The notes below the pieces were generated by a model. The model was not told the origin of the DNA and did no database searches. It worked only from the letters and a program-made list of their open reading frames with translations. Both the position numbers and the translations under genes were made by a program. Positions 4,969 to 19,216 of a DNA stretch of 32,028 nt are shown one piece after another. The stretch is taken from IMG/VR virus record IMGVR_UViG_2534681701_000015; one strand, written 5' to 3'. The stretch is from a virus. Taxonomy: Duplodnaviria > Heunggongvirae > Uroviricota > Caudoviricetes. Within the stretch, counting starts at the first letter, position 1; each line of letters begins with the position of its first letter.

Positions 4969-7414
<2,446 letters not shown>

Positions 7415-11337: not shown

Positions 11338-11874
11338 GCATCACTGGAAAGTGGAAAAACAACCTGAGTGGTACGTGAAAGCTATCAGAAAAACTATCGC
11401 GGCATTGCCAGGTGGTTACGCTGAAGCTGCTGACTGGCTGGATGTAACAGAGAACGCATTATTTAACCGGCCGATGGCGATCAGTTTTTTCCGTTGGGAT
11501 GGGCAATGGTTTTACAGCGTGCGGCTGGTACTCACCACATTGCGGATGCTGTCGCACAGTCTGCTGGTGGGGTGTTTGTATCACTTCCTGAAATTGAGGA
11601 AGTAGAGAACGCCGATATAAACCAGCGCCTGCTGGAAGTCATCGAACAGATCGGGAGTTACTCAAAGCAGATTCGTTCGGCAATCGAAGACGGGGTAGTG
11701 GAGCCACATGAGCAGACAGCAATTAATGATGAGTTGTATCTGTCGATTTCGAAGCTCCAGGAACATGCGGCACTGGTCTACAAAATTTTCTGCGTTCCAG
11801 AAAAGAGTGACGCCCGCGAGTGTGCAGCTCCGGGCGTCGTGGCGTTTTGTGTCTGTGGAGAAACTAACGCATGA
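11330..11874 (+). CDS. CII-like early regulator (CP76/YdaT-type position), with an apparent -1 frame break at a T6 run
   Basis: GTG 11330 preceded by GGAGG; the frame is coherent to the T run 11485-11490 then continues in the -1 frame to TGA 11872-11874; the C-terminus of the first ORF (FYSVRLVLTTLRMLSHSLLVGC...) looks non-coding. Confidence 0.45.
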
Positions 11875-12199
11875 ACAGTTTAACGGCAAATAACCGTTGG
11901 TCGCAACAGCTGGTGGTCCGCGTGGCTGAACACCTGTTGTTACGGCATGAATGCAGATTACCAAATCACCTGGCTGTAAGTAACCACAGAGAACTTTACC
12001 TGACTGTGGGGGGCGAGTTGTGCAGGAACTTAACCGCTGGTTTCGTGACGGAAGAGGACTTTATGTTCATGTTATTCGTTGGGAGCCAGAAACACAGCGC
12101 GTTATCTATCTTCGCAAAGACTACCCGCATGAGTGCTTTAGTCCTTTGTGGAAATTCAGGCGTGATTTTGTTGAGTGTGAAGGACCACCAGCACATTGA
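11871..12199 (+). CDS. Hypothetical small early protein, apparent -1 frame break at a G6 run (about 108 aa if joined)
   Basis: ATG 11871 overlaps the upstream stop (ATGA); frame breaks at G run 12008-12013; the -1 frame continues to TGA 12197-12199 (..VQELNRWFRDGRGLYVHVIRWEPETQRVIYLRKDYPHECFSPLWKFRRDFVECEGPPAH). Confidence 0.35.
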
Positions 12200-12284
12200 T
12201 TCTGCCATTCCGGGACGTTACACTGTTCAGGCACCTTATAAAGCGGGTGCCGGGCGTGGAAACCCGGAATTCACCAAAGCGCAC

Positions 12285-12308
12285 AACCGCGCTCTTGCGG
12301 TTTTTTTG
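12285..12308 (+). terminator. Intrinsic terminator inside the early-right operon
   Basis: AACCGC-GCTCTT-GCGGTT hairpin followed by T7 (12301-12307). Confidence 0.5.
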
Positions 12309-12476
12309 TGTCATGAGCAGCATTACGCCCAAATTATGGTGGGGCGTGCAGGGCCAACTTCGGTTGGGCCGGGTTCTTTGGTGACCGGTATTTCCACCCC
12401 TGTACGTCTCACCACCAATAAGGTCGTGGAAAGCCTTGGTGGTGAGTTATTTAAAATCACCAAAGAGGCTGCCATC

Positions 12477-13022
12477 ATGGCTACGATCCCAACCCTCACT
12501 CAACCTGAAATTGCCATCGTTGATGGTCAGGCTGTTACTTCATCCCTGGCTGTTGCCAACTTCTTCTCCAAACGTCATGACGATGTACTGAAAAAGATCC
12601 GCACGCTTGAATGCTCCGCATCATTCACTGCCCGCAATTTTTCGGTGAGTGATTACACCGATTGCACAGGCCGCAAACTACCTTGCTATCAAATAACCCG
12701 CGACGGCTTTGCGTTTCTTGCTATGGGTTTCACGGGTAAACGTGCTGCCCAGTTCAAAGAGGCATACATCAATGCCTTTAACCAGATGGAGAAACAGCTT
12801 TCAAGGCCCGCTGTACCGAGCGACGTTGCACATAACGCCAGCGTTCTCTGTTCCTACATTTCATCAATTCATCAGGTCTGGCTGCAGCAGCTTTATCCTA
12901 TGTTGGCAAAAGCCGAATCTCCGCTGGCTGTTAGCTTATATGACTATATTAATGATGCTTCGGCGCTGGCCTGCCTCATAAATTTGTCGCTGAACCCTTC
13001 AGAGGTAAGGGGGCGCAAATGA
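12477..13022 (+). CDS. rha: Rha-family phage regulatory protein
   Basis: ATG 12477 with SD AGAGG 8 nt upstream; N-terminus PTLTQPEIAIVDGQAVTSSLAVANFFSKRHDDVLKKIRTL...YQITRDGFAFLAMGFTGKRAAQFKEAYINAF fits the Rha family; the 383-aa ORF called from 11871 is read-through. Confidence 0.8.
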   Translation: MATIPTLTQPEIAIVDGQAVTSSLAVANFFSKRHDDVLKKIRTLECSASFTARNFSVSDYTDCTGRKLPCYQITRDGFAFLAMGFTGKRAAQFKEAYINAFNQMEKQLSRPAVPSDVAHNASVLCSYISSIHQVWLQQLYPMLAKAESPLAVSLYDYINDASALACLINLSLNPSEVRGRK

Positions 13023-13243
13023 TCCGGAATATTTTCAAACGTTTTACCAATCAGACTTTCCGTTGTCCTCGTCCGGGTCAGTGGTACACCACGCCTGCAG
13101 GGCATGTTCTACGTGTTAGCCTGGTTGACCGTGAATGTCAGAAGGTGGTTTGTGAACCGCTGGGCCGTAATTACCGCGTCAGTATGCCGCTTATAGCCTT
13201 TCGCTCCAGAAAAAACATGAAGCATCTCGGAGGTGCAGCATGA
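13019..13243 (+). CDS. Small Cys-containing hypothetical protein (74 aa)
   Basis: ATGA overlaps with both neighbours (Rha stop, O-like start); contains C-x24-C-x4-C. Confidence 0.45.
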   Translation: MIRNIFKRFTNQTFRCPRPGQWYTTPAGHVLRVSLVDRECQKVVCEPLGRNYRVSMPLIAFRSRKNMKHLGGAA

Positions 13244-14058
13244 GTATGGAGCTGATGGTTAAAGCGATGAAAATTCGAGTGGGTAATCCATTGCGAAAAC
13301 TGGTTCTGATCAAGCTGGCTGATAATGCCAGCGATCAGGGTGAGTGCTGGCCCAGCTACCAGCATATTGCTGACCAGTGCGAGATTAGCAAACGTTCTGT
13401 GATGAATCATATTGCGGCCCTTTGTGAGTCCGGGCTGGTAAAAAAAGTCACCCGGAAAGGTGAAAAAGGTAACTCAAGTAATATCTATCTCCTTCATCTG
13501 GATGGTGCAGGAGATTCACTAGGGGGTAGTGCAAATAATTCACTATCTGGTGCAGCAAATTCACCAGGTAGTGCAGGAGTTGCACCAGGGGGTAGTGCAG
13601 GAGATTCACCCAGAACCAGTCACTCTTTTGAACCAGTCAAAGAACCAGTCAATGAACCAATAGCTGTTGGTGCATCAGTTGATGAGTCCGTGCGAGTTCG
13701 TTCAAACCGACCGGAATATTCTCCGGAGTTTGAGCAGGCATGGCTGGCATATCCCAAACGTGCTGGTGGCAATTCAAAATCTGCAGCCTTCAAAGCCTGG
13801 AAAGCCCGTTTGAATGAGGGGGTAAACCCCGAAACCATGCTGGAAGGTGTGAAACGCTATGCGGGCTGGGTATCTGCAATGGGTAACAGCGGCACACAAT
13901 TTGTGAAACAGGCTGTCACGTTCTTTGGTCCGGATCGTCATTTCGAAGAATCCTGGGAAGTTCCTGCGGTATCTGCAGCCAGACGTGAGGACCCGTACTT
14001 CAAATCCAGTTACGACAACGTGGACTACAGCCAGATCCCGGCAGGATTCAGGGGGTGA
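13240..14058 (+). CDS. Replication initiator, lambda-O-like organisation (N-terminal winged HTH, low-complexity linker encoded by iterons, C-terminal domain)
   Basis: 272 aa; SD GGAGG 6 nt before the ATG; the linker GAGDSLGGSANNSLSGAANSPGSAGVAPGGSAGDSP is encoded by direct DNA repeats. Confidence 0.6.
   Translation: MSMELMVKAMKIRVGNPLRKLVLIKLADNASDQGECWPSYQHIADQCEISKRSVMNHIAALCESGLVKKVTRKGEKGNSSNIYLLHLDGAGDSLGGSANNSLSGAANSPGSAGVAPGGSAGDSPRTSHSFEPVKEPVNEPIAVGASVDESVRVRSNRPEYSPEFEQAWLAYPKRAGGNSKSAAFKAWKARLNEGVNPETMLEGVKRYAGWVSAMGNSGTQFVKQAVTFFGPDRHFEESWEVPAVSAARREDPYFKSSYDNVDYSQIPAGFRG
13504..13651. repeat. Iteron-like direct repeats inside the initiator gene: candidate replication origin
   Basis: Five imperfect ~20-bp repeats (core GT(A)GTGCAG..ATTCACC) at 13504-13610, then three perfect GAACCAGTCA copies at 13613, 13630 and 13642. 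Confidence 0.55.
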
Positions 14059-14060
14059 TC

Positions 14061-14549
14061 ATGAGTCTTTTGAATGACGTTCAGAAATTCATTGAAGCCC
14101 ATCCGGGGTGTACTTCCGGAGACATTGCGGATGCTTTTGCAGGTTACTCACGGCAGCGCGTACTGCAGTCAGCAAGCAAGTTACGTCAGAGTGGGCGTGT
14201 GGCTCACCGTTGTGAAGGGGATACACGCAGACATTTCCCGCGCCTGACTGAGAGAGCGCAGGAGCCGGAACCACAACCAGTTCGTGAAACCAGACCTGTG
14301 CGCAATTTCTATGTCGGCACTAACGATCCCCGGGTGATTTTGTGCCTGACCCGCCAGGCTGAAGAACTGGAGTCAAGAGGCTTATACCGTCGTGCTGCAA
14401 CCGTGTGGATGGCGGCATTCCGTGAAAGCCACTCCCAGCCAGAACGAAACAATTTTCTGGCGCGTCGTGAGCGGTGCTTACGGAAAAGCAGCAAGCGCGC
14501 TGCATCGGGTGAAGAGTGGTATCTGTCAGGGAATTACGTGGGGGCTTAA
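14061..14549 (+). CDS. Hypothetical regulator: N-terminal winged-helix-like region plus C-terminal PerC/Pch-like motif
   Basis: AEELESRGLYRRAATVWMAAF resembles the conserved helix of PerC/Pch regulators; GTG at 14055 is an alternative start. Confidence 0.4.
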   Translation: MSLLNDVQKFIEAHPGCTSGDIADAFAGYSRQRVLQSASKLRQSGRVAHRCEGDTRRHFPRLTERAQEPEPQPVRETRPVRNFYVGTNDPRVILCLTRQAEELESRGLYRRAATVWMAAFRESHSQPERNNFLARRERCLRKSSKRAASGEEWYLSGNYVGA

Positions 14550-15202
14550 TGAGTAATAAATATTGCCAGGCGCTGGTGGAACTGCGGAACAAACCAGCCC
14601 ATGAACTGAAGGACGTGGGCGATCAGTGGCGCACGCCGGACAACATTTTCTGGGGAATTAACACCCTGTTTGGCCCGTTTGTTCTGGATCTGTTCACTGA
14701 CGGTGATAACGCCAAATGTGCTGCGTATTACACGGCGGAAGACAACGCGCTGGCGCATGACTGGTCAGAACGTCTTGCGGAGCTTAAAGGTGCTGCCTTT
14801 GGTAATCCCCCATACAGCCGCGCCAGTCAGCATGAGGGGCAATACATCACCGGCATGCGTTACATCATGAAGCATGCCAGTGCCATGCGTGATAAGGGCG
14901 GGCGCTATGTTTTCCTGATCAAAGCTGCCACCAGCGAAGTTTGGTGGCCGGAAGATGCAGACCATATTGCTTTTATTCGCGGGCGTATTGGTTTTGAACT
15001 GCCTGCCTGGTTTATCCCGAAGGATGAGAAGCAGGTGCCGACAGGAGCGTTCTTCGCTGGTGCTATTGCTGTTTTCGACAAGACCTGGAAGGGACCGGCA
15101 ATCAGCTACATCGGGCGCGATGAACTTGAGGCATGTGGTGAGGCCTTTCTGGCGCAGGTTCGCCAGCAGGCGGAAAAACTGGTCAGGGAGATGGCGGCAT
15201 GA
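14549..15202 (+). CDS. Phage DNA N6-adenine methyltransferase (Dam-like)
   Basis: NPPY catalytic motif (GNPPYS); SD GGGGG before ATG 14549. Confidence 0.8.
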   Translation: MSNKYCQALVELRNKPAHELKDVGDQWRTPDNIFWGINTLFGPFVLDLFTDGDNAKCAAYYTAEDNALAHDWSERLAELKGAAFGNPPYSRASQHEGQYITGMRYIMKHASAMRDKGGRYVFLIKAATSEVWWPEDADHIAFIRGRIGFELPAWFIPKDEKQVPTGAFFAGAIAVFDKTWKGPAISYIGRDELEACGEAFLAQVRQQAEKLVREMAA

Positions 15203-15525
15203 CGACGTTAACTCAATGCCAGCAGCAGGTGCTGGATATGCTGATTTCTTACCAGAAAGAACGTGGCTTCCCGCCAACCAATCAGGAGGTGGCAACCATG
15301 CTGGGATACCGTTCAGTGAATGCAGCGGTGGAGCATCTTCGCGCACTGGAGAAAAAAGGCGTCATCACGATAAAGCGTGGCGTGGCCCGGGGGATCACGC
15401 TTCATACCGCAGTGAAGGACGACGACAGCGAAGCGGTCGGGATTATCCGCTCACTGCTTGCCGGTGAGGAAAACGCAAGGCTGCGTGCAACCCACTGGTT
15501 ACATGAGAGGGGCCTGAAAGCATGA
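15199..15525 (+). CDS. LexA DNA-binding-domain homologue lacking the S24 peptidase domain
   Basis: LTQCQQQVLDMLISYQKERGFPPTNQEVATMLGYRSVNAAVEHLRALEKKGVITIKRGVARGITL aligns by eye with the LexA N-terminal winged helix; 108 aa, no Ser/Lys dyad. Confidence 0.7.
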   Translation: MTTLTQCQQQVLDMLISYQKERGFPPTNQEVATMLGYRSVNAAVEHLRALEKKGVITIKRGVARGITLHTAVKDDDSEAVGIIRSLLAGEENARLRATHWLHERGLKA

Positions 15526-18906: not shown

Positions 18907-18982
18907 GGCCCTTTAGCTCAGTGGTGAGAGCGAGCGACTCATAATCGCCAGGTCGCTGGTTCAAATCCAGCAAGGGCCACCA
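18907..18982 (+). tRNA. tRNA with CAU anticodon (ileX/ileZ-like tRNA-Ile2 or Met)
   Basis: Cloverleaf folded by hand: acceptor GGCCCTT/AAGGGCC, D-arm GCTCAGTGGTGAGAGC, anticodon loop CTCATAA, T-loop TTCAAAT, 3' ACCA. Confidence 0.8.
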
Positions 18983-18983
18983 A

Positions 18984-19060
18984 CTGCCACTAGCTCATCA
19001 GGAAAGAGCGTCAACCCTTTAAGTTGAGAGTGCGAGGTTCGAGTCCCCGGTGGCGGTCCA
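18984..19060 (+). tRNA. tRNA-like gene, identity uncertain (anticodon loop CCTTTAA; UUU/Lys if canonical, but C at position 33)
   Basis: Acceptor CTGCCAC/GTGGCGG (one G-U), D-arm GCTC..GAGC, anticodon stem TCAAC/GTTGA, T-arm CGAGG-TTCGAGT-CCCCG (one mismatch), 3' TCCA. Confidence 0.5.
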
Positions 19061-19062
19061 GT

Positions 19063-19138
<76 letters not shown>

Positions 19139-19141
19139 TGT

Positions 19142-19216
<75 letters not shown>

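Follow-up and report, generated by a model that had tools for sequence, protein, structure and literature searches.

The window analyzed here, a 32,028-nt stretch of DNA (IMG/VR record IMGVR_UViG_2534681701_000015), is a lambdoid prophage with its integrase at 1-1224 in the annotation of the matching UTI89 region. One of its early genes encodes a small protein that ends in a PerC-like stretch, and the question is whether such a protein switches host virulence genes or works for the phage itself. The gene is almost certainly yfdN, a known prophage gene from the early operon of SfV/CPS-53-type lambdoid phages. Its product is identical to K-12 YfdN (b2357, NP_416858.1) at 161 of 164 positions (98%), and PHROG 1324 (“transcriptional activator”) covers residues 1-161 with an E-value of 1.3e-78. 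Both matches span the two domains of the protein, which places it in the YfdN subfamily. In K-12, b2357 is carried by the CPS-53/KpLE1 cryptic prophage and is listed as “uncharacterized protein YfdN”; there is essentially no difference between it and the window protein, and the two share both neighbors and the RefSeq name, which reads “yfdN: PerC family transcriptional regulator.” Uhlich et al. named yfdN “the K12 unique PerC homologue” (PMC5931665). RefSeq, Pfam, and PHROG already contain the gene together with its family assignment and two-domain layout, and the literature has a name for it. The preliminary description had treated the fusion of a winged-helix-like region to a PerC-like motif as an unrecognized arrangement, but proteins of the YfdN subfamily are normally built in this way, and the fusion is found in the 98% identical K-12 protein, covered at full length by phrog_1324, and annotated in thousands of genomes.

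By megablast, yfdN is present in 2674 of 5426 complete E. coli genomes, K-12 included. At about half of complete genomes, YfdN is among the commonest uncharacterized E. coli prophage proteins. A tblastn search located the gene in SfV (orf40), SfII, SfIV, mEp460, and Stx2c- and Stx2a-converting phages, along with a homologue of 69% identity in Salmonella ST64B; the “transcriptional activator” of SfII, SfIV, and ST64B is the same gene as yfdN. HMMER, run exhaustively against 1.84 billion cluster representatives, returned 99 clusters, of which about 25 are full-length two-domain relatives with 25-47% identity and lengths of 138-165 aa. Named sources of these relatives are Escherichia, Salmonella, Citrobacter, Hafnia, Lelliottia, Franconibacter, Kosakonia, and Pluralibacter, and the diverged two-domain clusters are from the Enterobacterales. 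A word search with the C-terminal domain alone returned almost exclusively close relatives, and the diverged members were found by the exhaustive representative search. Database fusions of PerC with Dam, HTH_36, or RusA were considered as new architectures and set aside; most are single-member clusters, with at most eight members (RusA+PerC), and they are read as deletion or frameshift derivatives. No defence-system match for YfdN was found in PADLOC.

Table 1 Features of the yfdN region, in window coordinates.
Feature	Coordinates	Strand	Description and basis
Rha/Ash regulatory gene	11871-13022		Early-right operon; followed by a 74-aa ORF
Replication initiator	13240..14058	+	HTH_36 N-domain and DnaD-like/primosomal C-domain; Pfam HTH_36 and DnaD_N, phrog_270 (“replication initiation protein”) and other PHROGs
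Iteron-like repeats	13505-13651		Inside the initiator gene
Shine-Dalgarno-like AGGGGG	14050..14055	+	5 nt from ATG 14061, within the final codons of the initiator gene
yfdN-type CDS	14061..14549	+	162 aa; ATG 14061, stop TAA 14547-14549; ORF list and sequence
N-terminal winged-helix domain, residues 1-62	14061..14246	+	AF2 model, PDB profile, Foldseek, and Pfam matches
Variable linker, residues 63-88	14247..14324	+	Predicted disordered; 4-28 residues in homologues
PerC domain, residues 89-150	14325..14510	+	TPR-like pair 90-105 and 109-122, then a long basic helix 126-~150
C-terminal tail W-x-L-[AS]-G-x-[YF]-x-G	14511..14546	+	Specific to the YfdN subfamily; conserved in two family alignments
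Dam N6-adenine methyltransferase	14549..15202	+	PF05869, E 2e-45; TIGR01712, E 2.9e-76
LexA DNA-binding-domain-only protein	15199-15525		Downstream of Dam

The reading frame given in the preliminary description agrees exactly with the sequence, and the peptide quoted from it, AEELESRGLYRRAATVWMAAF, corresponds to residues 100-120 (nt 14358-14420; Table 1). RefSeq offers an alternative start for yfdN at GTG 14055, giving a 164-aa product. The downstream ATG is the better start because of its spacing from the ribosome-binding site and because the N-termini of all diverged homologues in the family alignment read MSL... or MSI.... The AGGGGG junction arrangement is also present in related loci.

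We next consider the surroundings of the gene. Within the early-right operon, yfdN has the replication initiator before it and the adenine methylase after it, with tight junctions on both sides. The initiator stop codon (TGA, 14056-14058) falls between the AGGGGG and the yfdN ATG, and the yfdN stop has one base in common with the Dam ATG (TAATG, 14547-14551). Within 13240-15202, no sigma-70-like promoter site and no plus-strand terminator-like site was found. Based on the overlaps on both sides and the lack of promoter- or terminator-like sites in this interval, yfdN is an internal, translationally coupled member of the operon. The iteron-like repeats inside the initiator gene are probably the ori. 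Beyond the LexA DNA-binding-domain (LexA-DBD) gene, the order continues with RusA, KilA-N, DUF968, and Q. Strain 510016, UTI89, and K-12 have an equal gene order; the K-12 neighbors are truncated to an initiator remnant (yfdO) upstream and a methylase remnant (yfdM) downstream, whereas both genes are intact in the window.

The order of initiator, yfdN-like gene, and adenine methyltransferase is also kept in diverged loci, where YfdN identity is 25-42%. A Salmonella prophage (42% identity) carries the initiator, the YfdN-like gene, a D12-class methylase, LexA-DBD, and RusA, while Lelliottia, Franconibacter, and a metagenome contig (L095) carry the initiator, the YfdN-like gene, and Dam. A second contig (L094) is cut off upstream of the YfdN-like gene and shows this gene with an MT-A70 methylase behind it. 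All five loci (Salmonella, Lelliottia, Franconibacter, L095, and L094) have overlapping start and stop codons. Two homologues are placed otherwise. In E. coli, one with 38% identity is flanked by type I methylase/specificity genes on one side and Q on the other, and the phage that carries it encodes a DnaB of its own; a Kosakonia homologue comes after recT. Closer to the window, 80 IMG/VR loci with 99-100% identical yfdN have at least three upstream initiator alleles, of 272 aa (as in the window), 313 aa (about 30% identical), and 330 aa (about 77% identical). Dam is missing from nine of these 80 loci, and two Shigella loci with 65-82% identical yfdN also lack a methylase. The corresponding search of species-representative genomes yielded five loci. 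In the methylase-free loci, the LexA-DBD gene comes directly after yfdN.

The N-terminal domain has the H1-H2-H3-hairpin fold of a winged helix, and here the preliminary description, which had called the region winged-helix-like, is borne out by agreement among the AlphaFold2 (AF2) model, the PDB profile, and Foldseek. The model contains helices at residues 3-13, 19-25, and 31-44 and strands at 47-52 and 55-60, the latter two in a hairpin (47-60), with pLDDT of 81-89. A family profile searched against the PDB matched BlaI, MecI, MarR, and PapI-type winged-helix domains (best E 1.2e-4), and Foldseek against the PDB returned winged-helix domains at target-normalized TM scores of 0.5-0.8. Foldseek against the BFVD viral models gave generic winged-helix matches only, and individual family members matched Penicillinase_R, MarR_2, HTH_24, PaaX, or FaeA in Pfam. 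The sequence likeness to BlaI/MecI and MarR is marginal, and YfdN differs from them in having neither the MarR dimerization helices nor the BlaI C-terminal domain. The winged helix has a net charge of +4 in the window protein, family members span -3 to +9, and the exposed positions of the recognition helix (helix 3) vary from member to member. Given this charge range and the unconserved exposed residues, DNA binding by the winged helix is not assured. The linker that follows has pLDDT below 50 at residues 63-83 in the AF2 model. At the other end of the protein, the tail includes a nearly invariant G157 in the family alignments. Only the full-length model folds it into a hairpin, at low confidence; the domain-only model shows no regular structure there, and canonical PerC has no such tail in the short-PerC alignment.

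The C-terminal stretch, which had been likened to PerC/Pch regulators, proved to be a true PerC-family domain. The Pfam PerC model (PF06069) matches residues 98-149 (nt 14352-14507) with 36.1 bits and E 7.7e-9, over its gathering cutoff of 22.6 bits. The canonical PerC reference is the 89-aa product of the third gene of perABC on plasmid pMAR2 of EPEC E2348/69. In BLASTP, 17 of 46 residues of this protein are identical to YfdN residues 98-143 (37% over 46 aa, E 1e-6), with AKYLEEKGFYRRAADRW of YfdN aligned opposite AEELESRGLYRRAATVW of PerC. An hhalign comparison between a profile of 30 diverged YfdN-type proteins and one of PerC plus four short PerC-like proteins gave a probability of 99.1% (E 4.8e-19, 55 columns), and each of the 30 diverged relatives with both domains has a PerC match at E ≤ 0.01. 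YfdN and the studied PerC have the core motif LE-x-KG-x-YRRAA-x2-W ... R ... C in common, and L103, R111, A112, and C139 are invariant across the YfdN family alignment.

Modeled alone from a 33-sequence alignment, residues 85-162 form three helices (90-105, 109-122, and 126-150) with pLDDT of about 90. The third helix is basic throughout the family, its net charge being +1 to +8 (mean +4.4). The hallmark G-x-Y-x2-A-x3-W-x2-A looks, in sequence, like the turn that joins helices A and B of a TPR. No solved structure of a PerC domain was found in a PDB sequence search, and among the papers searched none described a TPR-like fold for PerC. Structural matches to the three-helix unit are generic, and the TPR-like likeness of the PerC domain is a lead only. 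HTH-plus-TPR regulators of the PlcR/Rap/NprR type provide an analogy only, as YfdN would have one TPR-like hairpin compared to their multi-repeat superhelix. The model suggests that the PerC domain may be a protein-binding and nucleoid-remodeling module with a nucleic-acid-friendly basic helix, rather than a classical DNA-reading motif.

A further comparison is with the ANR family (Aar, Rnr), small helical proteins that act by protein-protein contact (PMC10148876). Their likeness to YfdN is weak and covers residues 96-142, where the ANR model (NCBIfam NF033650) reaches 23.6 bits, short of its cutoff of 32. ANRs are single-domain proteins of 4-10 kDa that accompany AraC/XylS regulators, whereas YfdN is an 18-kDa, two-domain protein from a phage replication operon. 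We rejected membership of the 162-aa protein in the ANR family based on both the score and the size and layout. The ANR contact mechanism is a possible analogy for the way the PerC domain of YfdN may act.

PerC and PchA/B/C have the homologous core A-x2-LE-x-[KR]-G-[LF]-[YW]-RRAA-x2-W ... R-x6-R-x2-C and, like YfdN, are encoded on mobile elements. However, each consists of a single domain that starts with the motif (the group 1 pch genes measure 315 bp), and they have none of the winged helix, the linker, or the W-LAG-Y-G tail that make up the rest of the 162-aa, two-domain YfdN. YfdN does not share the single-domain layout of PerC/Pch sensu stricto. The genes also differ in location, with PerC/Pch found in the perABC virulence-regulator operon or among accessory prophage genes and YfdN in a replication operon. 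PerC and Pch activate LEE1, and the likeness of YfdN to these activators is one of domain homology. The PerC-like proteins of PICIs (EcCIMP1_025; those of EcCIEDL933 and EcCICFT073) are also found on phage-related elements with replication modules (PMC11773190). They can be likened to YfdN through their published description as PerC/ANR-like, and they indicate that family members need not activate LEE.

This comparison bears on the reading of the preliminary description, in which YfdN would be a PerC/Pch-like prophage activator that switches on host virulence loci of the LEE/ler type, or other host genes. The core motif lies in a true PerC domain, and PerC and PchA/B/C do activate LEE1 (PMC5931665, PMC4764244). 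Uhlich et al. worked in an MG1655 strain from which they had removed yfdN, so as to assay Pch proteins on ler::lacZ in a clean background (PMC5931665), which indicates that they deemed cross-activation possible, and overexpression of yfdN altered glycogen accumulation in an ASKA screen (PMC2853380). We nevertheless consider this activator role improbable. The gene is part of a lytic early operon and has no separate promoter-like site, so it should be silent in the lysogen, and it is ubiquitous in E. coli, including K-12. PchA/B/C activate ler, but among homologues outside Pch group 1, PchD and PchE have minimal effect on it (PMC5931665), and of the PICI proteins EcCIMP1_025 represses LEE1-lux while two others are without effect (PMC11773190). 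YfdN also has an extra domain and a tail that are missing from the activators. The coupled placement between the initiator and Dam argues for a role in the life cycle of the phage over that of a LEE-type switch. A host virulence regulator is thus not what the locus supports; yfdN is an ordinary prophage gene and not a new kind of virulence switch.

Based on analogy with its relatives, we tentatively favor the reading that YfdN is a DNA-tethered modulator of H-NS-type silencing. YfdN would be made after prophage induction or infection together with the replication proteins, an expectation that follows from co-transcription and translational coupling with the initiator and Dam. The winged helix may then anchor the PerC module, either at particular DNA or on a partner, and the module would remodel H-NS-type nucleoprotein complexes at the sites chosen by the winged helix. 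Silencing would be relieved or re-shaped primarily on the phage's own horizontally acquired DNA, for example at the ori region or at the downstream early and late genes, and any effects on host genes would be a side-effect. This proposal draws on the precedent of the Pch and ANR relatives together with the operon position. Pch relieves silencing by H-NS/StpA/Hha/YdgT, lowering H-NS occupancy in vivo and excluding H-NS from LEE1 DNA in vitro (PMC4764244), and ANR proteins directly bind H-NS, Ler, and AraC-type regulators (PMC10148876). Since PerC-family members have opposite outputs at LEE1 (activation, no effect, and repression), domain homology does not fix the target, direction, or partner of YfdN.

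The strongest competitor of this reading is a role in replication, which the initiator-adjacent slot, a helicase-loader site in related phages, fits equally well. YfdN could act with the initiator at the origin, either as an adaptor that recruits the host DnaB-DnaC complex or by clearing nucleoid proteins from ori. Lambda P, a small non-ATPase loader, is the model for the adaptor variant. In six comparator phages whose initiators have the same C-terminal domain and which carry no yfdN, a DnaC-like loader is next after the initiator in four (phiP27, Klebsiella ST846-OXA48phi9.2, PhiR49_2, and POCJ13) and a primase/helicase in SaltyDalty. The sixth, Evi, instead has an unrelated small gene there, and six phages make a small sample. 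The early operon of the window contains no loader or helicase gene (Dam, LexA-DBD, RusA, KilA-N, DUF968, and Q), yfdN is translationally coupled to the initiator, and in five diverged loci the yfdN-like gene likewise comes right behind the initiator. Overexpression of a UTI89 fragment containing the initiator and yfdN led to filamentation (PMC6206680). By matched coordinates, this fragment runs from within the Rha-family gene through a small ORF, the initiator, and yfdN to ~260 nt into the methyltransferase gene. In PICIs, PerC-like genes likewise lie alongside primase/replication modules (PMC11773190).

Several observations make a role at the origin rather unlikely. Searches of Pfam and NCBIfam (E ≤ 1) and PHROG (E ≤ 0.01) gave YfdN no match to a replication family, whether lambda P, DnaC/IstB, DnaB, or another, so that we rejected a replication-protein or helicase-loader identity for the ORF; the preliminary description had held that a clear match of this kind, together with the lack of a significant PerC/ANR profile match, would overturn its reading, and the PerC assignment stands. 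YfdN proteins that are 99-100% identical occur with at least three very different initiator alleles, and YfdN is therefore not co-adapted to one initiator. The off-position homologues in E. coli (own DnaB, with methylase and Q flanks) and Kosakonia (after recT) are also separated from this slot. The IPxGFRG tail of the initiator was considered as a YfdN-interaction peptide and discarded, as it is also present in a Klebsiella phage in which the initiator is followed by DnaC.

In a more specific version, YfdN would be no virulence regulator but a protein dedicated to the replication module of SfV/CPS-53-type phages, with PerC on mobile elements being primarily a nucleoid remodeler. Here the winged-helix-tethered PerC domain would work with DnaD-like initiators that have no phage-encoded loader, either as a bridge to the host DnaB-DnaC or by stripping H-NS-type proteins from ori. 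We regard this version as distinctly unlikely. If true, the ancestral job of PerC on mobile elements would be nucleoid remodeling for replication, and the activation of LEE by PerC/Pch would be a later co-option.

The downstream junction raises the alternative that YfdN is a partner or controller of the adenine methyltransferase, acting like a C-protein or, at GATC sites, like PapI. An adenine methyltransferase is immediately downstream in six of the eight distinct contexts, the slot is occupied by three non-homologous methylase families (Dam, PF05869; MethyltransfD12, PF02086; MT-A70, PF05063), and the yfdN stop and methylase start codons overlap. The winged-helix profile also weakly matches PapI/FaeA-type proteins (E 0.006 and 0.008), but this likeness is marginal and common to many winged helices. 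Lambdoid phages often carry a methylase gene at this position, which counts against a specific partnership, and nine of the 80 IMG/VR loci and the two Shigella loci have no methylase. A dedicated methylase partnership is highly improbable on this evidence, and the nine loci without Dam weaken the case for an obligatory link between the two genes.

The locus is of value as a pointer, since it places a PerC domain with H-NS-remodeling relatives in what is the helicase-loader slot of related phages. YfdN may bear on the role of PerC domains for mobile elements outside of virulence regulation, and on whether an induced prophage perturbs H-NS-controlled host genes. In the literature we found no experiments on YfdN function, and the protein appears there as an uncharacterized, background deletion, or overexpression-screen entry. 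A CFT073 nitric-oxide table, which was left out of the evidence used here, has yfdN among its entries alongside neighboring prophage genes.

Across the 80 IMG/VR loci L009-L088, yfdN (at approximately 5001-5486 of each locus) is near-invariant, while its surroundings are mosaic. At least three initiator alleles lie upstream of it, one of 272 aa, one of 313 aa (~30% identity) and one of 330 aa (~77% identity). Downstream, Dam is absent in 9 of the 80 loci, and the gene for the LexA DNA-binding-domain protein then stands directly after yfdN. An adenine methyltransferase gene also lies directly 3' of the diverged yfdN-like genes of a Salmonella prophage (L005), a Lelliottia locus (L007) and two metagenome contigs (L094 and L095), where it is drawn from three Pfam families: MethyltransfD12, MT-A70 and Dam. 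In L007 and L095, a C5 DNA_methylase gene comes next after the Dam gene. The LexA DNA-binding-domain gene is likewise kept two genes downstream of yfdN across many diverged loci. Profile searches at window positions 15199-15525 showed a product made up of the LexA DNA-binding domain alone, lacking an S24 peptidase domain; this protein could be an uncleavable SOS-box binder.

Proteins that appear to fuse the PerC domain to Dam, to the HTH_36 initiator N-domain or to RusA are present in the database (clusters P0019/P0020, P0023/P0024/P0030/P0035 and P0036/P0037/P0045). Most of these clusters have a single member, and the largest, RusA+PerC P0045, has eight. They probably arose from the yfdN operon by deletion or frameshift, rather than being real architectures. 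For yfdN itself, the start codon chosen by RefSeq/PGAP (GTG 14055) overlaps the Shine-Dalgarno sequence; a start at ATG 14061 agrees both with the distance expected from a ribosome-binding site and with how all homologues begin at their N-termini.

Features of the window and of related loci. Positions are those of the window unless a locus or genome is named.
Feature	Position (strand)	Description
IS-like ORFs	~5161-6962 (-)	two ORFs, 260 and 340 aa; sizes match IS100/IS21-family istB and istA as annotated in the related prophage of strain 510016
Rha/Ash ORF	11871-13022	383 aa; one long Rha-family CDS in RefSeq annotation
isrK Hfq-binding RNA	12231-12307 (+)	Rfam, gathering-level, 67 bits; inside Rha/Ash ORF
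C4 antisense RNA	12332-12419 (+)	Rfam, gathering-level, 83.6 bits; inside Rha/Ash ORF
Filamentation fragment	~12280-14810	equivalent of UTI89 NC_007946.1 4,997,073-4,999,597
Iteron-like direct repeats	13505-13609 (+)	three, ~39 nt; inside initiator gene
Iteron-like direct repeats	13612-13651 (+)	three copies of AGAACCAGTCA; inside initiator gene
[IV]P-x-GFRG initiator tail	14038-14058; L005 5984-6004; L100 3813-3833
LexA DNA-binding-domain protein	15199-15525 (+)	108 aa; PF01726, E 2.9e-19
tRNA cluster	18907-19216 (+)	four genes; between Q (upstream) and lysis genes (downstream)
Methyltransferase after yfdN-like gene	L005 6471-7352; L094 485-1144; L007 6420-7310; L095 4428-5750

Two sets of iteron-like repeats were found within the initiator gene, and the region that they span (13505-13651) is probably the phage origin. 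This placement resembles that of lambda, in which the origin is also within the initiator gene. Replication initiators otherwise unrelated in sequence share the C-terminal peptide [IV]P-x-GFRG. Since the same tail ends the initiator of a Klebsiella phage in which DnaC is the next gene, it is a feature of the initiators and not specific to yfdN.

Further upstream, the isrK and C4 matches look like a P1/P7 immI-type c4/antirepressor control module, and the long Rha/Ash ORF may not encode one single protein. A UTI89 fragment that caused filamentation in a published overexpression screen (PMC6206680) carries part of the Rha gene and runs through the 74-aa ORF, the initiator and yfdN into the beginning of dam. 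In that screen the effect was traced to this multi-gene fragment and not to one of its genes.

The early-left region of the window appears to be interrupted by an IS element, which is absent at the corresponding place in the matching UTI89 prophage. The tRNA genes are ordered Met(CAT), Lys(TTT), Thr(TGT) and Gly(TCC), the first of which is Ile in the RefSeq annotation of the matching genome.
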